Origin: a virus
Lineage: Duplodnaviria > Heunggongvirae > Uroviricota > Caudoviricetes
Virus record (IMG/VR): IMGVR_UViG_2609459801_000018
Length of the DNA stretch: 18,239 bases
Reading direction: 5' to 3' (one strand)
The notes below the pieces were generated by a model. The model did no database searches. It worked only from the letters and a program-made list of their open reading frames with translations, and was not told the origin of the DNA. The translations under genes were made by a program, and so were the position numbers. Below are positions 1-18,239 of the stretch, in pieces. The number at the start of each line of letters is the position of its first letter. The first letter of the stretch is position 1.

Positions 1-738
1 ATGGCAACTGCTATTCTGAACGTAGCCGGTCGCACCTTAGCCTTCATTAGTGGTAAGGCACCGGAAATCAAACCCTCGCCCGGCGGCGACACTCCATCGG
101 GGCCGTCTGATGGTGACACATCCGTTCGTACAGTCTCCCTGCTGCCGACAGCCGGAGAGGCTGCTGCGCAGGGCTGGACCATCACCGGCGGCAGTGTTGC
201 GCTGGAAGATGGTGTGTTTAAGGTTACCAAGCAGAGCAATAAAACCTGGTCCCTGATGCATCCGGTGGATGACGCAGTCTCCCTGCTGACACGGGGTGGC
301 AGACTGAGCTGTAAGTTTCGACTGTCAGGCGCACTGACCAACAACCAGTTCGGTCTGGGAATTTATCTGTATACCGATGTAGCGTTACCTGACGTCGTGG
401 CGATGACCGGGACTGGTAACCCGTTCCTGATGTCGTTCTTCACCCAGACCACAGACGGCAAACTGAATCTGATGCATCACAAGAAAGCCGGAAACACAAA
501 GTTGGGCGAGTTCGGGAATTACAGTAACGACTGGCAGACGCTGGAGCTGGTGTTCACCGCCGGCAGTGCCACGGTTACTCCGAAACTGAATGGAGTGGCT
601 GGCCCGGCATTCCAGGTCATAAAAGACAGTCTGACACTGGGGCTGAATGCGCTGACGTTAACTGATATCACTAAAAATGCCGCGTACGGCGTCGATATCG
701 GCAGCCTGGTGCTGGAAATCAATAATCCCGCAGCATAA
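1..738 (+). CDS. hypothetical protein, possibly 5'-truncated at the window edge; Gly/Thr/Ser-rich, function unknown
   Basis: 245-codon ORF starting at base 1 and ending 24 bp before the R-like gene, with an AGGAG-like RBS for the downstream gene. I recognise no family; it sits where P2 has lysis genes. Confidence 0.45.
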   Translation: MATAILNVAGRTLAFISGKAPEIKPSPGGDTPSGPSDGDTSVRTVSLLPTAGEAAAQGWTITGGSVALEDGVFKVTKQSNKTWSLMHPVDDAVSLLTRGGRLSCKFRLSGALTNNQFGLGIYLYTDVALPDVVAMTGTGNPFLMSFFTQTTDGKLNLMHHKKAGNTKLGEFGNYSNDWQTLELVFTAGSATVTPKLNGVAGPAFQVIKDSLTLGLNALTLTDITKNAAYGVDIGSLVLEINNPAA

Positions 739-761
739 GGAAGAGCAGGAGAGCAAAACAG

Positions 762-1229
762 ATGCTTAAGACAAACAGTCTGCGAGAGTCCATGCTTCAT
801 GGGTGTCGGTGGTGCCAGGCTAATCCCGAGAAATTCACCATTTTCGTGGAGAGCGGCAACATTGAAACGACCGGAGAAGCGCCCTCGTTTGTTTACCGCT
901 ATCAGATGGTGATGTTTGTCATGGATTACGCCGGAGAGCTGGACGACCTCACGCTGCCGCTGCTGGCGTGGTTATCCGAAAATCAGCCACAGTTGTTGCT
1001 CAATCCGGAGCGTAATCAGGACATCAAATTTTCTGCCGTTATCAATGACGATGACAGCGCCGATCTCCTGTTTACGCTCCCCCTGCGGGAACGCGTTCGC
1101 ATCACGCGCAACAGTCAGGGCACACCGCAGGCAGAACACCTGCCGGAGCCAAAACCCCGTCTGCCCTCTTCCGAAGGCGACTGGTCGCATGTATTCCAGG
1201 ATGTGACGTGGGGTGAAAGCGATGGATAA
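762..1229 (+). CDS. phage tail completion protein, R-like
   Basis: 155 aa, the same length as P2 gpR, directly upstream of the S-like and V genes; its stop overlaps the next start (ATGGATAA). Assignment by synteny and size, not a verified alignment. Confidence 0.55.
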   Translation: MLKTNSLRESMLHGCRWCQANPEKFTIFVESGNIETTGEAPSFVYRYQMVMFVMDYAGELDDLTLPLLAWLSENQPQLLLNPERNQDIKFSAVINDDDSADLLFTLPLRERVRITRNSQGTPQAEHLPEPKPRLPSSEGDWSHVFQDVTWGESDG

Positions 1230-3682: not shown

Positions 3683-4283
3683 TTCGTTGTTACCACCATC
3701 AGCCAGCAATTTCATGCGTTGTGCCGAAGCCGTCGGAACACGCATTACAGACATTCCGGTAGACCTCAACACGCTGTGGTCGCCGGACACCTGCCCGGTG
3801 CATCTGCTGCCTTATCTCGCCTGGGCGTTTTCCGTTGACCGCTGGGATCGCAACTGGCCGGAAGAGACAAAGCGACAGGTGATTCGTGATGCATGGCTGA
3901 TACACCGACACAAAGGGACCATCAGCGCACTGCGAAGAGCCGTGGAGCCTCTCGGCTACCTGATTGAAGTAAAGGAGTGGTGGCAACTCAACGAGGAGCC
4001 GGGAACATTTCGCATTGTTGTCGGAGTACTTGATCAGGGCATCACCGATGAAATGCATCAGGAACTTGAGCGCCTTATTGCGGATGCAAAACCAGTAAGT
4101 CGCCATCTGACGGGGCTGGCGATCAGCCTGAGTGTGAACGGAAAGATTTTCGTTGGTACGGGATGCTATCACGGCGATGCCCTGACGGTTTATCCCTACA
4201 CCCCGGAGTCCATTATTGTCGAAGGGGACTATTTCCCTGCCCCGGCCATTCATTTAATTGATAATCTGAGAGTAAACGCATGA
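3675..4283 (+). CDS. baseplate/tail protein I
   Basis: Contains gpI-like motifs (LWSPDTCP..LLPYLAWAFSVDRWD, ERLIADAKPVSRHL). The start is chosen at the ATG at 3675, which overlaps the J stop (ATGAGTAA), rather than the ORF-track start at 3642. Confidence 0.8.
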   Translation: MSNSLLPPSASNFMRCAEAVGTRITDIPVDLNTLWSPDTCPVHLLPYLAWAFSVDRWDRNWPEETKRQVIRDAWLIHRHKGTISALRRAVEPLGYLIEVKEWWQLNEEPGTFRIVVGVLDQGITDEMHQELERLIADAKPVSRHLTGLAISLSVNGKIFVGTGCYHGDALTVYPYTPESIIVEGDYFPAPAIHLIDNLRVNA

Positions 4284-5950
4284 CAGTGAAATACTACGCT
4301 ATTCTGACTAATCAGGGCGCGGCACGACTGGCTAACGCGACGATGCTCGGCAGTAAACTGAATCTGACGCAAATGGCCGTTGGTGATGCAAATGGTGTGT
4401 TACCAACACCAGACCCTGCACAAACAAAACTGATTAACCAGAAACGCATTGCACCGCTGAATCTTCTGAGTGTTGACCCTAACAATCAGAGCCAGATTAT
4501 TGCGGAGCAAATCATCCCTGAAAACGAGGGAGGATTCTGGATCCGTGAGATTGGTCTTTATGATGATGAAGGTGCACTCATTGCGGTGGCAAACTGCCCG
4601 GAAACGTACAAACCGCAGTTGCAGGAAGGCAGTGGACGCACCCAGACTATCCGCATGATTCTGGTTGTCACGAACACCGAAGCCATCACGCTGAAAATCG
4701 ACCCGTCTGTGGTTCTGGCAACCCGCAAATATGTGGATGATAAAATATCAGAGCACGAACAATCACGACGTCACCCGGACGCCTCGCTGACCGTAAAAGG
4801 TTTTACTCAGTTAAGCAGTGCAATTAACAGTGAATCAGAAACACTGGCCGCAACACCGAAAGCGGTTAAGGCTGCATATGACCTGGCTAACGGGAAATAT
4901 ACCGCCCAGAACGCCACCACTACACAAAAAGGGATTGTTCAGCTCAGTAGCGCCACGAACAGCACGTCTGAAACGCTGGCAGCGACACCAAAAGCTGTTA
5001 AGGCGGTAATGGATGAAACGAACAAGAAAGCACCATTAAACAGCCCGGCACTGACCGGAACGCCAACAACACCAACAGCGCCACAGGGGGCTAATAGTAC
5101 CCAGATCGCAAGCACGGCTTTCGTTATGGCCGCGATTGCCGCACTTGTAGATTCGTCACCTGATGCACTGAACACGCTGAACGAACTGGCTGCGGCGCTG
5201 GGCAATGACCCGAATTTTGCGACCACCATGACTAACGCGCTTGCGGGTAAGCAACCGAAGAATGCCACCCTGACGGCGCTGGCGAAGCTTGCTACATCAG
5301 CAGATAAACTCCCATATTTTACAGGGGCAGATCGTGCCGCGTTAACCGCGTTGACAAGTGTTGGACGTGCCATTCTTGGTAAAACCAGCACTCAGGGAGT
5401 TCTTGATTACCTTGGTTTGGGGGAAGGCTCTGCACTGCCCGTTGGTGTACCTGTTCCGTGGCCCTCAGCCACTCCACCAACGGGCTGGCTGAAATGCAAC
5501 GGCGCAGCATTTTCTCCTGAAGATTACCCCAAACTGGCACAGGCTTACCCCGCGAACAAATTACCGGATCTACGGGGTGAATTTATCCGTGGCTGGGATG
5601 ATGGACGTGGCTTGGATGCTGGGCGTGCCTTGCTAAGTCTTCAGGATGACTCTTTTGAAGCGCACAGGCATGAGTCCTTTTTTTATGCGGGTATTTCACG
5701 TAATGAGATCCCATTAAAAAATCTTCCAAGTTCAGACGAGATGCTGACTTTAAGTTCCACAACTAATGCCTTGTCCCCGGACGATATTGATGCCACCAAC
5801 TCGTTAATTGGTAATGACGATTACAACTGTCTTATCGAAGGGAATAAAAATAACAAACGAACAGCGACAGGACTGAGTACCAGTATTGTCGGCACAGCAG
5901 AAACACGCCCCCGCAACGTTGCATTCAATTACATCGTAAGAGCCGCATGA
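4280..5950 (+). CDS. tail fibre protein H; constant N-terminal part (to about 5416) fused to the currently expressed variable C-terminal cassette A (5417-5950)
   Basis: 556 aa. The N-terminal ~370 aa resemble P2 gpH, including the duplicated QLSSA.NS.SETLAATPKAVKA motif; the C-terminal part begins LGEGSALPVGVPVPWP, the conserved cassette head. ATG overlaps the I stop. Confidence 0.9.
   Translation: MTVKYYAILTNQGAARLANATMLGSKLNLTQMAVGDANGVLPTPDPAQTKLINQKRIAPLNLLSVDPNNQSQIIAEQIIPENEGGFWIREIGLYDDEGALIAVANCPETYKPQLQEGSGRTQTIRMILVVTNTEAITLKIDPSVVLATRKYVDDKISEHEQSRRHPDASLTVKGFTQLSSAINSESETLAATPKAVKAAYDLANGKYTAQNATTTQKGIVQLSSATNSTSETLAATPKAVKAVMDETNKKAPLNSPALTGTPTTPTAPQGANSTQIASTAFVMAAIAALVDSSPDALNTLNELAAALGNDPNFATTMTNALAGKQPKNATLTALAKLATSADKLPYFTGADRAALTALTSVGRAILGKTSTQGVLDYLGLGEGSALPVGVPVPWPSATPPTGWLKCNGAAFSPEDYPKLAQAYPANKLPDLRGEFIRGWDDGRGLDAGRALLSLQDDSFEAHRHESFFYAGISRNEIPLKNLPSSDEMLTLSSTTNALSPDDIDATNSLIGNDDYNCLIEGNKNNKRTATGLSTSIVGTAETRPRNVAFNYIVRAA
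5400..5425 (+). other. invertase crossover site 1 (TTCTTGATTACC-TT-GGTTTGGGGGAA), inside the H gene
   Basis: 26-bp hix/gix-like site; the conserved half-site GGTTTGGGGGAA (complement TTCCCCCAAACC) is shared with the four other copies; the left half-site TTCTTGA resembles hixL. Confidence 0.75.
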
Positions 5951-5969
5951 AAACGTTGGTTTGGGGGAA
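5944..5969 (+). other. invertase crossover site 2 (direct orientation relative to site 1)
   Basis: CGCATGAAAACG-TT-GGTTTGGGGGAA; the stop codon of H (TGA, 5948-5950) lies inside the site. Confidence 0.75.
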
Positions 5970-6437
5970 GGCTCTGCACTGCCCGTTGGTGTGCCTGTTC
6001 CATGGCCCTTAGCAACACCACCAACGGGCTGGCTGAAATGTAACGGTGCAGCATTTTCTTCTGAAATGTACCCCAAACTGGCAAAAGCCTACCCCACTAA
6101 TAAATTACCGGATTTACGCGGAGAATTTATCCGTGGCTGGGATGATGGGCGAGGAATTGATGCGGCACGCGCTTTATTGAGCATTCAAAACGGGATGTTG
6201 GAAAAACACCGCCATATTGTTGTAGCTAACGATGGATATGACACAAAAGATGAATGGGAGTTGGCTACGATTTTCAAAAAAACATATACACAAGGCAGGG
6301 GGCTTGATGCCACAAATACAGGAGGGAGTTTGATTCCATCACCAACGCTTCATTCACGAGGAAGTATTGGTAACACAGGTGGTAGTGAAACCCGCCCCCG
6401 CAATATTGCATTTAACTATATCGTGAGGGCGGCTTAG
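5961..6437 (+). CDS. alternative tail-fibre C-terminal cassette B (silent; no ATG, the ORF-track start is TTG)
   Basis: 158 codons, open, beginning LGEGSALPVGVPVPWP...GEFIRGWDDGRG and ending ETRPRNIAFNYIVRAA like the other cassettes. Confidence 0.7.
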   Translation: MGEGSALPVGVPVPWPLATPPTGWLKCNGAAFSSEMYPKLAKAYPTNKLPDLRGEFIRGWDDGRGIDAARALLSIQNGMLEKHRHIVVANDGYDTKDEWELATIFKKTYTQGRGLDATNTGGSLIPSPTLHSRGSIGNTGGSETRPRNIAFNYIVRAA

Positions 6438-6443
6438 TTATAT

Positions 6444-7055
6444 TCAACTGGCTGCTGCCAGTGGTATTTCCGGCAAGTTGATATCTGGTACCATGTTTAT
6501 ATCCATTGCGTTCAGCGCGTCTATATAATCCAGCACGGCATTAAGCCGGGTGGTTTCTGCCTGCGTCAACTTCCGCCCGGCCTGCAACTTCAACTGAATC
6601 AGACTTATGGAAGCCATTGCCGCATCAGCCAGTGACTGGCGCTTGGTTTCTGCCGCTTCTACTGCGGCACGATGTTGTGCCTCAGTATCTGTCACCCATT
6701 TTTCACCATCCCATTTATCGTATGGTGTTAACGGGGCGATAGTGGTTGTAGTTTTCGGGTAGTCACCCAGCGCCGTGATTTCTTCGGTGTTTCCCGTGTC
6801 AGTGCTATAGACGGTTTCACCACGATGGTCTGGCGCATACTCCCATGAACTTAAATTCTCCGAACGGCGGATAGCATAGCCCGCTTTATGTGCGCCCGGG
6901 GCATCTAAACAGGAATTTGCCGGAATACCGACACCCACAGCAAGATATTCAGTTGATTCGGAAATATATTCCCGTGTCTCACCATCATAGTTATAAACGA
7001 CGATGTTTCCTGCCTGTACGGCAATAAGGTCATCATTTAATATCGCGTTATTCAT
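6444..7055 (-). CDS. tail fibre assembly protein (P2 gpG / Mu U family chaperone)
   Basis: 203 aa with a tfa-like C-terminus; its ATG overlaps the stop of cassette C (TAATG), so it is translationally coupled to that cassette. Confidence 0.8.
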   Translation of the reverse strand: MNNAILNDDLIAVQAGNIVVYNYDGETREYISESTEYLAVGVGIPANSCLDAPGAHKAGYAIRRSENLSSWEYAPDHRGETVYSTDTGNTEEITALGDYPKTTTTIAPLTPYDKWDGEKWVTDTEAQHRAAVEAAETKRQSLADAAMASISLIQLKLQAGRKLTQAETTRLNAVLDYIDALNAMDINMVPDINLPEIPLAAAS

Positions 7056-7513
7056 TATGCGGTTCTCACAATATAATTGAAGGCAATATTGCGTGGGCGG
7101 TTTTCATTCCCATCTGAGGATTCCGTTCTGTATTGACTGGTAAATCTACCGTTAATTGCACCTTGCCGGACGGCGTTATCTGTCGACAACAGACTATCCC
7201 CTCTTTTGTCATTTGGCACCAGTACCGTGTTATCCCACGCATCCCATGACCGAATATTATGATAATGACTTCCTGTTAACCACCCCTGCATGCTTAAGAT
7301 GCCCCTTCCGGCATCCACCCCGCGCCCATCATCCCAGCCACGGATAAACTCACCGCGTAAATCAGGTAATTTTAACGTTGGGTAAACCTTTGCCAGATTT
7401 GGGTACATTTCAGAAGAAAATGCTGCACCGTTACATTTCAGCCAGCCCGTTGGTGGTGTGGCTGAGGGCCATGGAACAGGCACACCAACGGGCAGTGCAG
7501 AGCCTTCCCCCAA
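7055..7513 (-). CDS. alternative tail-fibre C-terminal cassette C (silent, inverted), paired with the tfa gene
   Basis: 152 codons, open, with the conserved head and the conserved tail ENRPRNIAFNYIVRTA; starts at the TTG within site 3. Confidence 0.7.
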   Translation of the reverse strand: MGEGSALPVGVPVPWPSATPPTGWLKCNGAAFSSEMYPNLAKVYPTLKLPDLRGEFIRGWDDGRGVDAGRGILSMQGWLTGSHYHNIRSWDAWDNTVLVPNDKRGDSLLSTDNAVRQGAINGRFTSQYRTESSDGNENRPRNIAFNYIVRTA

Positions 7514-7530
7514 ACCAACGTTTTCATGCT
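7505..7530 (-). other. invertase crossover site 3 (inverted relative to site 1)
   Basis: Plus strand reads TTCCCCCAAACC-AA-CGTTTTCATGCT; contains the stop codon of cassette D. Confidence 0.75.
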
Positions 7531-7952
7531 GCCCTTACGATGTAATTAAACGCAATATTACGAGGACGAATGGTTACATAATTGACCCCATCACCTCGTG
7601 AAGGTCCTGCAAATGAAAAACGGGAAAAGCTTGGTTGGTTAGAAACAATTTGGTCATAGTTATTGATTGAATGACCAGACCCAATGTCGAAATTACCTCC
7701 GTAATGAGAAAAACTTGTACCATCCTGCCCTGAAAGCAGGGTACGTCCCGCATCAATCCCGCGCCCATCATCCCAGCCACGGATAAATTCACCCCGTAAA
7801 TCCGGTAATTTATTGGTGGGGTAAGCCTTTGCCAGTCCGGGATACATTTCAGAAGAAAATGCTGCGCCGTTACATTTCAGCCAGCCCGTTGGTGGTGTTG
7901 CTGAGGACCACGGAACGGGCACACCAACGGGCAGCGCAGAGCCTTTCCCCAA
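7524..7952 (-). CDS. alternative tail-fibre C-terminal cassette D (silent, inverted)
   Basis: 142 codons, open; head is GKGSALPVGVPVPW (K in place of E), tail is RPRNIAFNYIVRAA. Confidence 0.7.
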   Translation of the reverse strand: MGKGSALPVGVPVPWSSATPPTGWLKCNGAAFSSEMYPGLAKAYPTNKLPDLRGEFIRGWDDGRGIDAGRTLLSGQDGTSFSHYGGNFDIGSGHSINNYDQIVSNQPSFSRFSFAGPSRGDGVNYVTIRPRNIAFNYIVRAA

Positions 7953-7969
7953 ACCAACGTTTTCATGCT
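7944..7969 (-). other. invertase crossover site 4 (inverted; one mismatch in the conserved half-site, TTTCCCC instead of TTCCCCC)
   Basis: Plus strand reads TTTCCCCAAACC-AA-CGTTTTCATGCT; contains the stop codon of cassette E. Confidence 0.7.
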
Positions 7970-8486
7970 GCCCTTACGATGTAATTAAACGCAATGTTGC
8001 GTGGGCGGTTTTCGTTTGCAGTTGGAACAATTTTTGAAGCATCAAGGCCAATCACTTTTGGGTAAACAGCGCCGTCTGTCCTTTCTGTCACCATACTTCT
8101 GACTAAGGAGAAATAACTATTGTTTGTTGAGGAATTTAAAGGCACCACTGCCCCCTTAAACGAGCCTACTGATTCCCATATTGAATAATTTTCAGTGTTT
8201 ACAGTCTTGAACTCACCATAGATATTACGTATGGCATCACCTTGAGCGGATAATATTGTTCTCCCCGCATCCGCACTACGTCCATCATCCCAGCCACGAA
8301 TAAATTCACCCCGTAAATCCGGTAATTTATTGGTGGGGTAAGCCTTTGCCAGTCCGGGATACATTTCAGAAGAAAATGCTGCGCCGTTACATTTCAGCCA
8401 GCCCGTTGGTGGTGTTGCTGAGGGCCACGGAACGGGCACACCAACAGGCAGCGCAGAACCTTCCCCCAAACCAACGTTTTCGTTTT
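7963..8486 (-). CDS. alternative tail-fibre C-terminal cassette E (silent, inverted)
   Basis: Open frame with conserved head LGEGSALPVGVPVPWPSATPPTGWLKCNGAAFS and tail ENRPRNIAFNYIVRAA. The ORF-track extension to 8526 starts at TTG and runs through site 5, so it is unlikely to be a real start. Confidence 0.65.
8461..8486 (-). other. invertase crossover site 5 (inverted), 55 bp upstream of the invertase start
   Basis: Plus strand reads TTCCCCCAAACC-AA-CGTTTTCGTTTT; same conserved half-site as the others, with a distinct outer arm. Confidence 0.75.
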
Positions 8487-8540
8487 TATCCCTACCTATA
8501 CCAACTATGTATTTTTCACGAAACAAAGAGGATGTTTTTT

Positions 8541-9140
8541 ATGCAAATTGGCTATGTTCGTGTGTCAACAAATGACCAGAACACGGATTTACAACGCAAT
8601 GCACTGAACTGCGCAGGATGTGAACTGATTTTTGAAGATAAAATCAGCGGAACGAAATCAGCCAGACCGGGATTGAAAAAACTGCTCAGAACGCTATCAG
8701 AAGGAGATACGCTGGTTGTCTGGAAGCTGGACAGACTGGGCAGAAGTATGAAACACCTGATCACGCTTATTGAGGAATTGCGGGAAAAAGGTGTTAATTT
8801 CCGTAGTCTGACGGACAGCATTGACACATCAACACCCATGGGGCGTTTCTTTTTTCACGTCATGGGGGCTTTAGCCGAAATGGAACGTGAATTAATTGTA
8901 GAGCGTACACTGGCCGGGCTGGCAGCAGCACGCGCACAAGGACGCATTGGCGGACGTCGCCCGAAGTTGACAAAAGAACAACACGAGCAAATAGCGAGGC
9001 TGATTAAAAACGGTCATGACAGGAAACAACTGGCGATCATTTACGACATCGGCATATCGACGATTTATCGTTATCACCCTGTAGGCGATATACAGGCTGA
9101 AGAAACAACCAGGCAGACTCAGGAAAATGAAAACCGCTAA
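8541..9140 (+). CDS. site-specific DNA invertase, small serine recombinase of the Hin/Gin/Pin/Cin/Min family
   Basis: N-terminus MQIGYVRVSTNDQNTDLQRNAL with the catalytic Ser in VSTNDQ; motifs VVWKLDRLGRS, GRFFFHVMGALAEMERELI..ERT and a C-terminal HTH region, near-identical in pattern to Pin/Gin. AGAGGA RBS 8 nt upstream of the ATG at 8541; the ORF-track start at 8346 is rejected. Confidence 0.93.
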   Translation: MQIGYVRVSTNDQNTDLQRNALNCAGCELIFEDKISGTKSARPGLKKLLRTLSEGDTLVVWKLDRLGRSMKHLITLIEELREKGVNFRSLTDSIDTSTPMGRFFFHVMGALAEMERELIVERTLAGLAAARAQGRIGGRRPKLTKEQHEQIARLIKNGHDRKQLAIIYDIGISTIYRYHPVGDIQAEETTRQTQENENR

Positions 9141-9166: not shown

Positions 9167-9661
9167 TCAAAACAGCCCTTTAACGGAGCTGGCCGCGCTG
9201 TTAAGGGATGATGTGACCTTATCTTTGAAGCCGGACAGCATATCACTGAACGATGAGGATTGCAGGCGCTCCCGCAAATCCTCATCACAGCGTTCAAGAG
9301 TCAGTGAAAACTCTATCTTTTTCGCCTTACCGTAGCGATCAAACTCGGAGCGGGTCGTATTCGTTCCGGTCAGGACATACATGCCGTAAATCTGCCCGAC
9401 ACCATCAATCAGAGGCCAGGGGCGTCCTGTATATGCCTGCGTGGTCAGCAACGAAAGCGACACTTCGCCACCTGTAATTTCAGGATAAAGCACACCAGAA
9501 AGAACGATGCGATCATCGCCTGCCCCGATATACTGCCAGCTTGCTGAACGGTTAACGCGTTCATTTTTCACATGCCGCCAGCTTTTGTTTTGCTGTAACT
9601 GCTGATGCGGCAACGTACGCAGCTCAAAAACAAACATGCCGTAGATCATCATCATGGCCAT
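9167..9661 (-). CDS. tail protein U
   Basis: 164 aa; N-terminus MAMMMIYGMFVFEL and the GAGDD / PLIDG motifs resemble P2 gpU; immediately downstream of T. Confidence 0.8.
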   Translation of the reverse strand: MAMMMIYGMFVFELRTLPHQQLQQNKSWRHVKNERVNRSASWQYIGAGDDRIVLSGVLYPEITGGEVSLSLLTTQAYTGRPWPLIDGVGQIYGMYVLTGTNTTRSEFDRYGKAKKIEFSLTLERCDEDLRERLQSSSFSDMLSGFKDKVTSSLNSAASSVKGLF

Positions 9662-9667
9662 GACTCC

Positions 9668-12511
9668 TCAATCTTTATCGTAAAAACTGCCACGCCCGGC
9701 ACGGGCGCGCCGTTCCATTTCTGCCCTGACCATTTCACCGACCAGTTTCGCCAGTTCGCGGGGATTCTGCGTAACAACGTTATGCAGATGAACATGAATT
9801 TCACCACCAAATCCGGAGGCAACAGGCTCCCGGTTACGGGAAGTTACAGGAACTGATGCCACTGGAGATCGTATGGCCTCCGCCACCGGGCGGGAGCTGG
9901 CCGCAACAACAGGGACCAGCGCCGGAGGCAGCGGAGCCGGGACCACGGGGGTGATATTCATTGCGGGGGCAGGCTTACTGACCTGTGCAATCTTCCGCTC
10001 CTGCCACTCCCCACGAACAGCAAGTGCGCGGGGCAGGTTCTTAAAGACAATATCGCCGGGGCCAATACGTTTTTTTGTCTCATCAACCAGCTTACCTGTG
10101 TTATCAGCAATTTTGCTGAGTCTGCGTAGCGTGCCGGTATTGCTGTCTGTGAGCGGTTTGTTGTCTTTGGGTTTATCGCCTCCGGTGCCATTGCCATTTT
10201 CCGCAGACTTCGGCGGATTGATTTTCGCAATGTCTCCCTGAAACAGAGCAACCTTGTCCTGAAGAATGGCCGCACGCTGTGCGTCTTCGATTTTCTTTCT
10301 CGCCCTTTCCGCTTCATCCGGAAGCACACCGAGTTTTTCAAGTATCCACGCCAGCGTATCCAGCAACATTTTTGCAGGCGTCAGAACAAGCTGTAGCGCG
10401 CCACCAAGAGCGTTACCGAATATCTCGCCAGCACTGGTACATTTATCCAGCGTTTCCTTGCTGGACTCCATCGGTGACAGCAGCGATTTAAACCAGTTAA
10501 ACACCTGGCTGATCCCGCTTCCGATTGCGTCAAAAACAGGACCAAACCGTTCAAAGGTTTCACGCAACGGGTTCAGCCTTTCCATAATCCCGCTGAACAC
10601 CCCGGCAAAAAATGCCCTGATGGGATCCCAGTATTTCCAGATAAGAACGGCAGCTCCGGCAAGCGCAGCCACGATAAGACCAACCGGACTGAACAGCGCC
10701 CCGATAGCGCCTCCCAGCAAAGAAACGGAACCCGTCACCATTCCCCACAGCGCAGGCAACACCCTGACGACATTCATTGACCGGGTAAGAATGTCAAAAC
10801 CAAGACGCAGGGTGGCCAGCTTCCCGTAAAGCACCCCAATAACCAGTGACAACGAGCCAATCGTTGCAGTCATTGCCAGCAACGCACCGCCTGCTATCAG
10901 TAGCTGGCGCGTCAGTACCGGATGGGCCTGCGCCAGCGAGGTGATTTTTTCAAGCACCCGCGTGAGCCACTGCGTGACAGAACGCAGCGGACCGTCAACC
11001 AGATCACTGATGCGAATACGAAGACCTTCCCATGCGCTGTCGAGATTTTTCAGGTCCCCATCAAGATTATCGGCCATTACTTTTGCAACGCGATCGGCCT
11101 CTCCCCTTGCCCCCTGCAATTCTCTGGTCAGTTTTTGCAGCTCTCCTGAACCAGCCGCCGCAACAAGCGTCTGCAAACCAACGAACGCCTCTTCTCCGGC
11201 GATGTCCTTGAAGAAGGAGACCTGGTCCACCTGTCCGTATTTTTGTGTCGCCTTATAGAGATCAAGCAGCACATCCTCCATCGGGCGCATTTTGCCTCTG
11301 GCGTCAGCAACTGACACCCCCAGCTCTTTCAGTGCATCAGCCGCAGCTTTTGGCGGTGATGCAAGGCGGGACAGACTTGCGCGCATGGCCGTGCCAGCAT
11401 CGCTTCCGCGAAGACCATTATTGGCAAGCATCCCGGCCATAGCCGCCGCTTCTTCAAGACTGATACCAAGTTTTGCGGCAACCGGACCGGTATACTTCAT
11501 GGTTTCGCCCAGCGCGCGTAAATCAGTATTGGTCCGGGTGAATGCCGCTGTCAGCGTATCGCCAACCCGGTCCATTTGATCGGCTGTCAGGTTGAACTGT
11601 GTGAGGATATTGGAGCCTATATCCGCCGTCTCGCCGAGTTCGACGCCACCTGCCAGCGCCATATTAAGAACACCGGGCAATGCGGCCTGAATGGCCTGCG
11701 GAGTAAAACCAGCCATTGCCAGAAAGCTCTGCCCACTGGCGGCATCACTCGCAGTAAACTGTGTTTCAGAGCCAAGTTTTAACGCCTGCTCACGCAGCGC
11801 CTTAAACTGCGGGCTGTTTTTGTCGATTCGCGTCAGTGCCTGAACGCGGGACATCTCTTTGCCGAACCCGATCGCAGGCTGCAAAAAACGCCCGGCAGCA
11901 TAGCCGCCCGCCGCTGCCGCACCAATTGCCAGCGCACCACCTGTTTTCAGTTTTCCCGCGGTTTCCTGCGCGCGCGAATACCGCTCACGCGCCCGCGTTA
12001 CACGCGCAAGCGCCTGCCGTTCGCGTTCAAGCTGGTTGTTGTACTGTTCGGTGCGTCTGATGGCCTGCTGGATGGTGTTATCGCTGCCTGTCAGGGAAAT
12101 GCCGTGGCGTTTCAGCTCTCCGCCAAGCTCCCGCATTTTCTGAATTTCCCGTGTGCGCGATTCATTCAGGCGTTCAAGCCGGGTGCTTAACTGCTGCATC
12201 AGCTTTTGTTGTTTTTCGCTGAGCACTGTACCCGTGCGTTGTAACTGATTAAGGGCGTTAAGCTGGCGTCGTGCTTTCACGATACCCGCATCCGCTTTAC
12301 TGACAGCGTCGCGGGCGCGCTCAAATGATCGCGCCTGACGCTCGAGATTTTTGATCGCCCCCTGCGTTCGCTGGATGGAGTCACCAAACTGCCCCATCAG
12401 GCGGCGGGCGTTTTCGGCAGGCCGGGTCAGCCTGTCAACGGCGCTGAAAGCGACCCGGATATCAAGAGTCTTCATTGTCTGCATTCCCGCTGCGAAGTGC
12501 CGCCCGCTCAC
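9668..12511 (-). CDS. tail tape measure protein T
   Basis: 947 aa, coiled-coil N-terminal region, Ala/Gly-rich hydrophobic central segments, typical position between E' and U. The start is uncertain: GTG at 12511, or ATG at about 12484 or 12475. Confidence 0.88.
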   Translation of the reverse strand: MSGRHFAAGMQTMKTLDIRVAFSAVDRLTRPAENARRLMGQFGDSIQRTQGAIKNLERQARSFERARDAVSKADAGIVKARRQLNALNQLQRTGTVLSEKQQKLMQQLSTRLERLNESRTREIQKMRELGGELKRHGISLTGSDNTIQQAIRRTEQYNNQLERERQALARVTRARERYSRAQETAGKLKTGGALAIGAAAAGGYAAGRFLQPAIGFGKEMSRVQALTRIDKNSPQFKALREQALKLGSETQFTASDAASGQSFLAMAGFTPQAIQAALPGVLNMALAGGVELGETADIGSNILTQFNLTADQMDRVGDTLTAAFTRTNTDLRALGETMKYTGPVAAKLGISLEEAAAMAGMLANNGLRGSDAGTAMRASLSRLASPPKAAADALKELGVSVADARGKMRPMEDVLLDLYKATQKYGQVDQVSFFKDIAGEEAFVGLQTLVAAAGSGELQKLTRELQGARGEADRVAKVMADNLDGDLKNLDSAWEGLRIRISDLVDGPLRSVTQWLTRVLEKITSLAQAHPVLTRQLLIAGGALLAMTATIGSLSLVIGVLYGKLATLRLGFDILTRSMNVVRVLPALWGMVTGSVSLLGGAIGALFSPVGLIVAALAGAAVLIWKYWDPIRAFFAGVFSGIMERLNPLRETFERFGPVFDAIGSGISQVFNWFKSLLSPMESSKETLDKCTSAGEIFGNALGGALQLVLTPAKMLLDTLAWILEKLGVLPDEAERARKKIEDAQRAAILQDKVALFQGDIAKINPPKSAENGNGTGGDKPKDNKPLTDSNTGTLRRLSKIADNTGKLVDETKKRIGPGDIVFKNLPRALAVRGEWQERKIAQVSKPAPAMNITPVVPAPLPPALVPVVAASSRPVAEAIRSPVASVPVTSRNREPVASGFGGEIHVHLHNVVTQNPRELAKLVGEMVRAEMERRARAGRGSFYDKD

Positions 12512-12991
12512 GCCAGCTAACCACTTCGCCGGGCGTCATCATGAAGATTTCGGCGGGCGACCAGTTAAAAATGGCGGCAATATCCGCCACAAAGTCTTCT
12601 ATGTGCTCAAAGCACACAACCGTGATCAGGCTTCCGTCGCCTGTTCGCTCTTCCCGCCAGAGTCCGCACCGCTCAAAAAATTTACGGCAACCACACATAA
12701 CTGAATAAAATCACGGGATGCCATTTTTTTGATCGTCACTTCATCCAGTCGTGGCGAGGTCACGCGTGACAGCAGCGTAAACATGGATTCCGCTTTCAGA
12801 TTCAGCACATCAGACAGCGACAAATCTCGCAGAGATCCAGCCTGCTCAATAGCCCCGGTGATCTCCACATACGTGATTTTTTCGCCGCCTCGCTCAATTG
12901 GTTGGGTAAGTTTTACGCCACGCTCACTGGTTTCTTTCACAGTGTCAGTAACTACCGTGTTTTCGGTATCGATGTTTTTCGTCTCTTTCAT
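12462..12991 (-). CDS. tail assembly chaperone E' (E+E' fusion made by a programmed -1 frameshift near 12674-12680)
   Basis: ORF 12462-12698 is in the -1 frame relative to E and is open from just downstream of the TTTTTTG site. Shifting there gives ...VAVNFFERCGLW..., matching the second ORF. Its end overlaps the start of T. Confidence 0.7.
12626..12991 (-). CDS. tail assembly chaperone E
   Basis: 121 aa, acidic, between the tube gene and T; contains the slippery heptamer, as in the P2 E/E' arrangement. Confidence 0.8.
   Translation of the reverse strand: MKETKNIDTENTVVTDTVKETSERGVKLTQPIERGGEKITYVEITGAIEQAGSLRDLSLSDVLNLKAESMFTLLSRVTSPRLDEVTIKKMASRDFIQLCVVAVNFLSGADSGGKSEQATEA
12674..12680 (-). 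promoter_or_regulatory. programmed -1 ribosomal frameshift slippery site TTTTTTG (E to E')
   Basis: The coding (minus) strand reads AAT TTT TTG AGC in the E frame; the downstream -1 frame is open for about 70 codons. Confidence 0.65.
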
Positions 12992-13045
12992 CAGGAAACT
13001 CCTTTCAGTCAGAGGCGACGCACTGCGCCGCCTGCATATTACTTA

Positions 13046-13558
13046 TCAGCCAAGCCCGAGCGCGGAACGGATGCGATCGGGCACAATGTCCTTGCCGTCC
13101 TTCCGGTAGATGTGGTTCAACAGGTCGATTTCCCACAGCGGGCGATCGTTAACGCTCAGCTTGTAGTAGGTGTTTTTGACAGCGTAAGTGTGTGATGTGG
13201 CTTCGCCCTGTTTGGCCTCCCCCATATCAATTTCCGTCACACGCCCGCGCATCTCGATTTCATACAGATCGCTTTCTGCATCGGTGTAGTATTCACCCGC
13301 AAAACGCAGCAGCGTGCCGTCAATCGTGCCGCCATATTTAAGGAACAGCGCACGAACAGCTCCCCCCATGACAAAGCTCGCATCAAGCGCGGAGTCGTCC
13401 AGACCGAGATCAATACTTACCGCCCCCATCATGCCACCACCCCGGTAGCTGTCGGTTTTGCGCGTCAGCTTAGGCAGAGTGACGGACGTCACCTTACCCA
13501 CTTCGTTTTCACCATCCACAAACAGCGTAAAAAAGCGAAGATGTTTTGGTACAGCCAT
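13046..13558 (-). CDS. major tail tube protein FII
   Basis: 170 aa; start overlaps the FI stop; length and position match P2 FII. Confidence 0.88.
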   Translation of the reverse strand: MAVPKHLRFFTLFVDGENEVGKVTSVTLPKLTRKTDSYRGGGMMGAVSIDLGLDDSALDASFVMGGAVRALFLKYGGTIDGTLLRFAGEYYTDAESDLYEIEMRGRVTEIDMGEAKQGEATSHTYAVKNTYYKLSVNDRPLWEIDLLNHIYRKDGKDIVPDRIRSALGLG

Positions 13559-14742
13559 CAGGCACCTCCCAGCACCGCAAATGCGGGACCAAAGAATTCA
13601 TCAGTAAACGTCTGGTAAAGCTCCATGTCTTCCAGTGGCGGAACGGGCGTATATTTGTAGCGAATACGCACACGTCCCTGACGTAAATCCGTGGTGCCGT
13701 TATCCACCACGTCATACCAGCACTCCGCGCCAATCAGTTTCCCGGCAGTAACCAGCGAATCCAGTTTTGCCCTGATGGCACTGATAACATCCTTCACGTT
13801 CGCAGGCGTCAGTGGACTGTCGATGGTTTCAAACTGCGCTTCCGCAATTGAATCAGCCAGCACCTGTGCGGTTCGGGTATACACCTCAAAGATGTAGGCG
13901 TTCGTTTCCGGTGTGCGGTTGCCCCAGAAGCGGAACCCGTTACGACGAATAATGGTCGTGATTTCTTTGTTGTTGAGGCTGTTGGCATCACTGTCTTCGG
14001 CCTGTAACGACCAGAACACATGCCTCGACATCCCCAGCACATTTTTAACCGGAACGTTGGACAGCGATTTGTGCCAGCCCTGCTCATGGTCAATGTACGC
14101 ACGAAGGCCGCACGCATAAGCAGGCGCGGGGAACGTTTCGTTTTTGCCACTTTTCGGGTTGTAGGCGATGAAGTCAGGCCATAAGAGCATCACCTCACGT
14201 TCGTTGAATTTCTGGCGGTAGGTAATCGCCTCAGCCATCGTGTTACAACCATGACATGCGGCATACACAAACGCGCGCAGTTTACCCGCAATCACGCACA
14301 GGGATTTTGTCACCGCCTCCGTGTCCAGCTCCGGCGCGGCCAGAATACGCGGACGGTATCCGATGCTTTCATCCTGCTCTGCAACAAGCAGCGCATACAT
14401 CCCCGTATAGCTGCCGTCAGATTCAGAACCACCGATAACCAGTTGATCCTGCGTCTTTCCGTTTTCTTCTTTGTGTTCAGCCACGCGAACGACGATCACC
14501 TTTGTGCTCACCTGGTCTGCGATGGCCTTAAGCGCACGATAAAGCGTCCCCGTTGTCCCGCATTTTCCCAGCACGTCATTGACGCGGGTCAGCAGTGTGG
14601 GCTTGTTCAGCGGGAACAGCTTCGCGTCCGCATCATCCGCCGTTGCCACGATACCGATAACGCTGGAATCAACATCGTTAATCGCTGTTACCAGGTCGGT
14701 ACTTTCCGTAACACGGGCACCATGAAAACGAGTTTCACTCAT
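13558..14742 (-). CDS. tail sheath protein FI
   Basis: 394 aa; length, composition and position upstream of the tube gene match the P2 FI sheath. Confidence 0.9.
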   Translation of the reverse strand: MSETRFHGARVTESTDLVTAINDVDSSVIGIVATADDADAKLFPLNKPTLLTRVNDVLGKCGTTGTLYRALKAIADQVSTKVIVVRVAEHKEENGKTQDQLVIGGSESDGSYTGMYALLVAEQDESIGYRPRILAAPELDTEAVTKSLCVIAGKLRAFVYAACHGCNTMAEAITYRQKFNEREVMLLWPDFIAYNPKSGKNETFPAPAYACGLRAYIDHEQGWHKSLSNVPVKNVLGMSRHVFWSLQAEDSDANSLNNKEITTIIRRNGFRFWGNRTPETNAYIFEVYTRTAQVLADSIAEAQFETIDSPLTPANVKDVISAIRAKLDSLVTAGKLIGAECWYDVVDNGTTDLRQGRVRIRYKYTPVPPLEDMELYQTFTDEFFGPAFAVLGGA

Positions 14743-14899
14743 AGCTTCAGCCCCTTGTATCCGTTAAATGATTCGGCAACAATCATCACCCACCACGCGC
14801 GTAATCTCACCCCTGCGCCGTTCTCCCGCCACGGCGACAACAAAAAGCAGTAACCCCCTCCGCACGCACATGCGACCATGCCGCACAGGGAGGGAGCAG

Positions 14900-16009
14900 A
14901 TGACCGACACCACCATGCAATTGCTCAGTCAGGGCACAGACCCCGTGAAAATGCCGGATTTTGATATTCTCGCGGAGGGTAAAACGCTGTCAGGCGTGGC
15001 AGAGTGCCTGATGAGCCTGTCACTGACCGACAACCGGGGATTTGAGGCGGACCAGCTCACCATCACGCTGGATGATGCGGATGGTCAGTTGCAGCTACCG
15101 CCACGGGGCGCGCGCCTGACGGTTCTCATTGGCTGGAAAGGAGAACCGCTGACAGAAAAAGGCACTTACATTGTTGATGAAATCGCTCACGAAGGACCGC
15201 CGGACAGGCTGACTGTTTCAGCCAGAAGCGCAGATTTTCGGGATGAATTTAACGTTAAACGTGAGGTGTCCTGGCATGATGTGACCGTTGAGCGTGTGGT
15301 ATCCGCCATCGCTCATCGGTATGGTCTGAAACCGCAAATCAGCGAAATGCTGATGGATATCGAAATCGACCACGCCGACCAGACCGAAGAAAGCGACATG
15401 TCCTTCCTTACGCGCATGGCGGAAATGCTGGGCGCAATCACCACGGTAAAAAGCGGTAATCTGTTATTCATCATGCCCGGCGGTGGCGTGAACGCACAGG
15501 GCCAGCCGTTGCCATCGTTTGCCATCACACGCAGCAGCGGCGATCGCCATCAGTTCCGCATTGCTGACCGCGAAGCGTATACGGGGGTACGCGCTTACTG
15601 GCTTGATCTTAATTACGGGAAAAAGAAAAAAGTCAGCGTGAAACGCCGTAAACCGCCAAAACCCAAAAAGGAGAAAAGCAGCAGCCGTGAAGGTGATTAT
15701 ATGGAAGGCGCGGAAGGCAATGTGTTTGTGTTACGCAAGACTTATCAGAACGAGCAGACAGCAAGACGCGCAGCGGCGGCAAAGTGGCAGCAACTACAAC
15801 GCGGAGCCGCATCATTCTCCATCACGCTGGCGCGTGGACGTGCAGAACTCTACCCCGAAATGCATGGCACGGTAACAGGATTTAAAAGCGAGATTGATAA
15901 TCAGGACTGGATCATTGCAAAAGCCGAGCACACCATTGATAACAGCGGTTTTACCACGCAGCTTGAGCTTGAGGCAAAAATCCCGGAATGGATAGCGGAA
16001 ACAGAGTGA
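14900..16009 (+). CDS. tail protein D (P2 gpD-like)
   Basis: Motifs TDNRGFEADQL.ITLDD, SARSADFR, SWHD, and the lysine-rich KKKVSVKRRKPPKPKKEK segment as in P2 gpD. Start chosen at the ATG at 14900, preceded by GGGAGGGAG, rather than the ORF-track start at 14768. Confidence 0.85.
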   Translation: MTDTTMQLLSQGTDPVKMPDFDILAEGKTLSGVAECLMSLSLTDNRGFEADQLTITLDDADGQLQLPPRGARLTVLIGWKGEPLTEKGTYIVDEIAHEGPPDRLTVSARSADFRDEFNVKREVSWHDVTVERVVSAIAHRYGLKPQISEMLMDIEIDHADQTEESDMSFLTRMAEMLGAITTVKSGNLLFIMPGGGVNAQGQPLPSFAITRSSGDRHQFRIADREAYTGVRAYWLDLNYGKKKKVSVKRRKPPKPKKEKSSSREGDYMEGAEGNVFVLRKTYQNEQTARRAAAAKWQQLQRGAASFSITLARGRAELYPEMHGTVTGFKSEIDNQDWIIAKAEHTIDNSGFTTQLELEAKIPEWIAETE

Positions 16010-16049: not shown

Positions 16050-16310
16050 ATGTTCCGTTGTCCGCTTTGTGGCGCATCTGCCCGTATCCGCACCAGTCGT
16101 TCGGAAAATGATTCAAACACCGTACGGAAAAAATATTACCAGTGTAACAACCTGGAATGCGGCATAAGTTTCTCAACACTGGAAGCTTTCCATAAATTCA
16201 CATCGAAACACGCCCCCGGCGTTCACTCTTCAGAAGGTATCCCGTGGCATGAGTTGCCAGCTTCACACAGGGGAAACAATCAGATGAGTTTGCCTTTATC
16301 TCAGAATTAA
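16050..16310 (+). CDS. ogr: Ogr/Delta-family zinc-finger late transcription activator
   Basis: N-terminus MFRCPLCGASARIRTSR....YYQCNNLECGISF reproduces the Ogr C-x2-C...C-x4-C zinc-finger pattern; AAGGGAGG RBS; located after D as in P2. Confidence 0.8.
   Translation: MFRCPLCGASARIRTSRSENDSNTVRKKYYQCNNLECGISFSTLEAFHKFTSKHAPGVHSSEGIPWHELPASHRGNNQMSLPLSQN

Positions 16311-16946: not shown

Positions 16947-18239
<1,293 letters not shown>

Follow-up and report, generated by a model that had tools for sequence, protein, structure and literature searches.

The window that we analyzed is a stretch of DNA of 18,239 nucleotides, and its first ORF raises the question of whether it is a gene in its own right or part of something larger. 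The ORF occupies 1..738 on the plus strand (245 codons and a stop), and an earlier note, made from the sequence alone, had described it as an unrecognised protein situated where P2 carries lysis genes. The composition given in that note, Gly/Thr/Ser-rich with a proline-rich N-terminal linker, agrees with our residue counts (Gly 11.4%, Thr 11.0%, Ser 6.9% and Leu 11.4%, with Gly and Thr enriched), and the motif PSPGGDTPSGPSDGDT lies at residues 25-40. The placement directly upstream of an R-like gene also holds, as the neighbor at 762..1229 on the plus strand is the P2 gpR tail completion gene (PF06891, E=1.4e-38). The two are separated by an intergenic spacer of 23 nt (739..761, plus strand), which contains the gpR ribosome-binding site AGGAG at 747-751, and gpR is followed in the window by gpS, V, W, J, I and the tail fibre gene H.

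Homology and structure searches, which the earlier note had proposed as a check, recognised the ORF as a member of the NanS-p family, so that the label "unrecognised" no longer applies. The sole Pfam match is PF20350 (DUF6645), which covers residues 96-206 with E=4.8e-20 and a score of 72.2 bits, above the gathering cutoff of 27, and an NCBIfam scan of the ORF returned a chance-level match only. Among solved structures, residues 50-242 matched PDB 6YP6, entitled "NanS-p", with E=6.5e-31, and the C-terminal domain is 91% identical to that of NanS-p from Stx2 phage 86 and 85% identical to that of phage 434. By megablast against phage records, the ORF matched lambdoid and Stx phages only, at the 3' end of genes labelled "SASA family carbohydrate esterase" or "yjhS 9-O-acetyl-N-acetylneuraminic acid deacetylase", which are names for NanS-p. 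The entire ORF aligned to positions 382-631 of the 634 positions in the PHROG 143 profile, which places it at the C-terminal end of a far longer protein. In agreement with this placement, the ORF is 98-99% identical to residues 382-626 of 626-aa proteins that contain the domains DUF1737, SASA and DUF6645, which bears out one of the options that the earlier note had listed, namely that the ORF could be the C-terminal part of a larger protein. The NanS-p-type protein encoded here belongs to a known, characterised family of phage sialate O-acetylesterases. We are confident that 1..738 makes up the 3' 40% of a nanS-p-type gene and encodes no more than the linker between domains and the beta-sandwich of lectin type. 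We attribute the appearance of a 245-aa gene to the draft assembly as the more likely cause.

The source contig shows how such an ORF could arise. The window corresponds to contig JNRZ01000044.1 of assembly GCA_000704965.1, to which it is identical from contig base 377 onward, and the frame runs on upstream in every relative that we examined, as expected from the earlier suspicion that the ORF was truncated at the window edge. Upstream extension, also suggested at that time, revealed that the 376 nt preceding the window are the 3' part of the SASA esterase domain, recognisable though frameshifted, with 6 nt missing in five indel events. Gene calling on this garbled contig start yields fragments of 62, 72 and 245 aa. 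JNRZ01000044.1 terminates inside the nanS-p gene, and the remainder of the SASA domain and DUF1737 are absent from the contig. Because the contig starts inside the gene and the 376 nt preceding the window are frameshifted, we regard the ATG at 1-3 as an internal Met codon picked by the gene caller, which would have used the first in-frame ATG past the last frameshift. The same codon is CTG (Leu) in the intact relative L001 and ATG in L002, and it is internal to a long ORF in both. A search of the source contig for a Shine-Dalgarno sequence at usable distance upstream of this ATG found none.

These observations bear on two other accounts of the ORF. Under the first, translation would start at the ATG at base 1 and yield a free-standing protein of 245 residues, which could act as a lectin-like moron of its own or as an accessory protein of the tail. 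The source annotation called a product of exactly 245 aa, one 245-aa "DUF6645 domain-containing protein" is present in nr (P0016, 78% identity), and two relatives (P0063 and P0084) lack the esterase domain and consist of DUF1737 and DUF6645 only. However, the frame is open upstream in all intact relatives, many of which carry CTG in place of the ATG, and P0016 could be matched to no contig. Furthermore, upstream there is a single purine-rich run, AGGGG, and at about 17 nt from the ATG it is too distant to act as a Shine-Dalgarno sequence. We rejected this candidate because the source contig shows esterase-domain sequence upstream, still recognisable as SASA coding DNA, and we now consider a free-standing gene very improbable. 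An account that deserves more weight, though we think it unlikely, is that the source strain carries a genuine decaying pseudogene, in which the frameshifts of the esterase domain are real and the lectin ORF is a non-functional remnant. All five indel events are packed into about 160 nt, and none looks like an obvious homopolymer slip. In addition, the first 100 nt of JNRZ01000044.1 are 96% identical to the phage-86 allele and 70% identical to the P88-type allele, a pattern that real recombination between paralogues could explain. In contrast, the adjoining 612 nt that encode the lectin domain are nucleotide-identical to the intact gene of L001 (dN=dS=0), which would be odd for an old pseudogene, and the indels coincide precisely with a contig end that falls in a multi-copy repeat, a setting in which consensus errors from collapsed paralogues are expected. 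The nanS-p sequence occurs at a median of 2 and at up to 11 places per E. coli genome, most of its database relatives are "partial" proteins at contig ends, and three P88-like Peduoviridae records break in the same gene, each ending inside nanS-p (ON470623.1, PV468777.1 and ON470599.1). Based on this multi-copy nature, these partial relatives and these three records, we find a repeat-induced contig break with a collapsed-paralogue consensus more likely than real gene decay as the cause of the indels. The 245-aa gene is a fragment under either cause. The three records that end inside the gene also suggest that nanS-p is systematically under-represented or cut off in draft prophage records.

The location of the ORF raised a further candidate, a lysis-cassette component such as a divergent LysA, LysB or LysC or an endolysin accessory. 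In P2, lysA, lysB and lysC precede R, and the position just before gpR is the one point in favor of this assignment. Against it, the ORF has no match to a lysis family in Pfam or PHROGs, in line with the view in the earlier note that it is not a holin, an endolysin or LysB/LysC-like. It is devoid of transmembrane or lipobox character, and its AF2 model is a soluble all-beta sandwich. The relatives that we inspected encode a full set of holin, M15 endolysin, DUF2570 (LysB-like) and LysC upstream of nanS-p, and phage P88 lyses cells without nanS-p. On the basis of the missing family match and the complete upstream lysis cassette in relatives, the lysis-protein reading was rejected, and we assign it a negligible probability. 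The earlier note had asked whether relatives carry lysB/lysC at the position of the ORF; lysC is instead upstream, with nanS-p between lysC and gpR. Because relatives keep the complete lysis set, nanS-p is an addition to the lysis cassette and replaces no part of it, which corrects the claim that the ORF stands where P2 carries lysis genes.

Returning to the reading of 1..738 as the end of a nanS-p-type gene, we examined how the intact gene is situated. In complete E. coli genomes, DNA that is 98.6-98.9% identical to the window over bases 1-1300 lies inside a 625/626-codon gene of a P2-family prophage. An intact nanS-p gene encoding 625/626 aa was found between lysC and gpR in all ten related P88-like E. 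coli prophage loci inspected (two complete-genome loci and eight further contigs that encode an identical gpR). The encoded proteins contain DUF1737 (PF08410, 30.5 bits against a cutoff of 24), SASA and DUF6645, and the SASA domain of these 98-99% identical relatives (PF03629, E=6e-13) retains the GQSN and RPTH blocks. The intact gene is 1.88 kb long; its start overlaps the lysC stop (ATGA), as in L001, where the annotated nanS-p start at 18857 and the annotated lysC end at 18860 give an overlap of 4 nt, and gpR begins 23 nt past the nanS-p stop.

The type phage P88 (Xuanwuvirus, Peduoviridae) lacks nanS-p, and its DUF2570/LysC genes are followed directly by gpR. Between P88 and a prophage that carries nanS-p, homology is lost close to the lysC end and returns after the first 42 nt of gpR; the interval measures 1998 nt in the nanS-p carrier, in place of 93 nt in P88. 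The BLAST boundary aligns P88 position 3501 with L001 position 20803, and phage matches start at query base 43; the right edge of the cassette thus falls at about base 803 in the window, and the first 42 nt of gpR belong to the inserted nanS-p cassette. We conclude that nanS-p is an accessory cassette (moron) of about 2 kb in P88-like prophages, and the option of a cargo gene, which the earlier note had also listed, is borne out by its absence from P88 and its presence in P88-like relatives. The R-S module was detected at >95% identity in 1046 of 5426 complete genomes, 375 of which contain the nanS-p/R junction; this corresponds to about 36% of the prophages with this module, or about 7% of the complete E. 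coli genomes. A scan of the L001 equivalent for a promoter or terminator belonging to the cassette yielded nothing above chance, no terminator was found in the 739..761 spacer, and the GC content of the cassette (0.54-0.57) is as in its flanks, with no anomaly. A search of one literature collection found no description of nanS-p in P2-family prophages and no match for DUF6645.

Downstream of the R-S region, the window contains a multi-cassette invertible tail-fibre region at 4280-9140. The fibre gene H (4280-5950, plus strand) is accompanied by collar-domain C-terminal cassettes at 5961-6437 on the plus strand and at 7055-7513, 7524-7952 and 7963-8526 on the minus strand, by a single tail-fibre assembly gene (6444-7055, minus strand) and by a serine invertase (8541-9140, plus strand). 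Inverted repeats of 217-282 nt with 87-90% identity join the end of H to each minus-strand cassette, a layout that resembles the Min/p15B-type multiple inversion system, unlike a simple two-state Gin/Cin switch. The mechanically called ORF at 8346-9140 (TTG start, 264 aa) over-extends the invertase, whose Resolvase domain runs from the ATG at 8541 (MQIGYVRVS...). A block comprising tail sheath, tube, E, tape-measure and U follows at 9167-14742 on the minus strand, with a gpD-like ORF (14768-16009) and ogr (16050-16310) on the plus strand. Only 25 nt separate the start of the gpD ORF, taken at its maximal length, from the start codon of the sheath gene, and the Pfam match of the ORF begins at residue 135; the true gpD start is probably further downstream. 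At the end of the window lies the host seryl-tRNA synthetase gene serS (16947-18239, minus strand), which adjoins the ogr end of the prophage, whereas the equivalent end in L001 is beside ihfA/pheT, which indicates that the same phage type occupies different integration sites. Within the gpS gene, a segment of 271 nt (1472-1742) recurs with 100% identity in MT713136.1, the 254-kb record of Aeromonas phage AP1, a match that probably reflects contamination or misassembly in that record.

The part of NanS-p that remains in the window divides into a linker and a single domain. Codons 1-41 (1..123, plus strand) represent the tail end of the esterase domain and the flexible interdomain linker and align with residues 382-422 of the intact 626-aa proteins; on the same strand, nt 73-120 encode a linker stretch rich in Pro, Gly, Ser, Asp and Thr. 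The AF2 model, with an overall pLDDT of 86, shows residues 1-36 as disordered (<50) and an all-beta domain at about residues 42-242 (pLDDT >90). This domain, codons 42-242 (124..726, plus strand), is the NanS-p C-terminal domain, a lectin-like jelly-roll or ConA-like beta-sandwich according to PF20350, PDB 6YP6, AF2 and Foldseek, and the DUF6645 core within it spans nt 286-618 on the plus strand. The best Foldseek match is again 6YP6 (TM 0.84 (TMt), rmsd 2.2 A, 35% identity), followed by legume lectins, ERGIC-53/VIP36 and the sialic-acid-binding domain of V. cholerae sialidase. ConA-like lectins and the lectin domain of the V. cholerae sialidase (PDB 2W68) share the beta-sandwich jelly-roll fold with the window domain (Foldseek E about 1e-7, TM about 0.5), but at 9-15% identity the resemblance is one of fold only. 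The family is small, with 61 DUF6645 representatives among 1.84 billion cluster representatives. Six of the ten longer members that we scanned have DUF1737 and/or SASA, and no other Pfam family was found in any of them; P0063 and P0084 have DUF1737 and DUF6645 without SASA.

For vb_24B_21, the NanS-p of phi24B, residues Y510, Y515, Y540 and F611 have been proposed as a sugar site (PMC10462455). Alignment places F117, Y122 and F147 (349..441, plus strand) and L213 (nt 637-639, plus strand) of the window as their respective counterparts, so that aromatic character is kept at three of the four putative positions, with Leu in place of F611 at the fourth. The dN/dS of the lectin module relative to lambdoid alleles is 0.22-0.28, which indicates purifying selection on the domain. 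As cited in PMC8065619 and PMC10462455, Franke et al. (2020) characterised the 6YP6 domain as a lectin-like jelly-roll, for which a role as an esterase-assisting carbohydrate-binding module was proposed, not demonstrated, and carbohydrate binding has been demonstrated for no member of this C-terminal domain family (PMC8065619). By analogy, we propose that the lectin-like domain binds carbohydrate and would thereby direct the esterase to O-acetylated sialoglycans.

The comparison with characterised enzymes outlines what the intact gene may do. NanS-p enzymes of EHEC prophages remove O-acetyl groups from Neu5,9Ac2 and from mucin glycans and allow growth on Neu5,9Ac2, an esterase activity demonstrated for lambdoid alleles only (PMC8065619). 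Based on homology, we infer that the intact P88-type protein (for example WP_032207317) is a sialate O-acetylesterase, which would make it a phage-borne enzyme with three domains: DUF1737 at the N-terminus, the SASA/SGNH domain as sialate 9-O-acetylesterase, and the lectin-like domain at the C-terminus. The same three-domain architecture is found in NanS-p of Stx2 phage 86 (orf3, BAF34035; "NanS-p sequence 20" in PMC10462455), of phage 434 (UMO75335) and of Stx1a phages. The P88-type SASA domain is 79-87% identical to those of phages 86 and 434, and RPTH in SGNH block IV is common to P88-type and phage-86-like NanS-p (PMC10462455). Both types of gene also lie in the late region beside lysis genes. 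They differ in carrier, which is a P2-family phage (Xuanwuvirus) for the P88-type and a lambdoid phage for the phage 86/434-type, and in position, as P88-type nanS-p follows the lysis genes at the lysC/R junction whereas lambdoid alleles lie between stx/Q and S. The proteins vb_24B_21/gp84 of phi24B and NanS-p of 933W (6YP6; Franke et al., 2020) share the fold of the window domain at only about 35% identity, and the phi24B linker carries an "SSP" motif, proposed to function in autoprocessing, where the window has PSP/PSG. The chromosomal NanS (YjhS) of E. coli K-12 has the SASA/SGNH esterase domain (PF03629) in common with the intact relatives (PMC10462455), but it lacks DUF1737 and the lectin-like domain, and the part of the protein encoded in the window consequently has no counterpart in NanS (PMC8065619).

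Gene spacing, namely the overlap of the nanS-p start with the lysC stop and the location of gpR 23 nt downstream, suggests that nanS-p would share a late transcript with the head, lysis and R/S genes. The protein appears to have no signal peptide and would reach the outside only upon cell lysis, where the esterase could strip O-acetyl groups from the sialic acids of mucin glycans. The enzyme of this particular strain may be dead, as its esterase domain is frameshifted in the source contig.

The three modules of the gene do not share one history. Between P88-type proteins and those of phages 86 and 434, the SASA and lectin modules are 79-91% identical and DUF1737 only 21-29% identical, and synonymous divergence is 0.18-0.37 for the lectin module, 0.7-1.1 for SASA and saturated for DUF1737. 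These sharp differences in both measures indicate modules of differing history. For gp84 of phi24B, a 2026 preprint reports that DUF1737 binds as a hexamer in the hexon pores of the capsid, which the protein decorates in processed form, and that the linker is cleavage-prone (bioRxiv 10.64898/2026.04.10.717836). The replacement or divergence of DUF1737 alone is as expected if this module is fitted to a different capsid, that of P2 gpN. By analogy with phi24B, we raise the speculative and rather doubtful possibility that P88-like phages display the NanS-p esterase-lectin on the capsid, in which case the lectin domain of the window could lie at the outermost end of a virion decoration and bind mucin there, and would be more than a part of a soluble enzyme set free by lysis. 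The phi24B finding also lends some plausibility to the option of a structural or receptor-binding accessory protein in the earlier note, which for P88-like phages is conjectural. A search for stand-alone relatives of the P88-type DUF1737 gave only near-identical contig-end fragments and the three cut-off Peduoviridae records. Searches on DUF1737 and on P2-like phages with acetylesterase in the same literature collection gave nothing that describes nanS-p in P2-family phages. The combination of a divergent DUF1737 with conserved esterase and lectin modules offers a natural test of DUF1737 as a capsid-binding module.

Taken together, these results remove a false lead, in that a fragment of a known enzyme was seen as a separate gene only through a contig break in a multi-copy gene. 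They also extend the known distribution of NanS-p, which has so far been discussed almost only as cargo of lambdoid and Stx phages, because an intact allele is also present in P2-family prophages. About 7% of complete E. coli genomes carry this P2-family nanS-p, many of them from non-STEC human isolates, and estimates of the dosage of sialic-acid and mucin-foraging genes in E. coli should include the copies in P2-family prophages.
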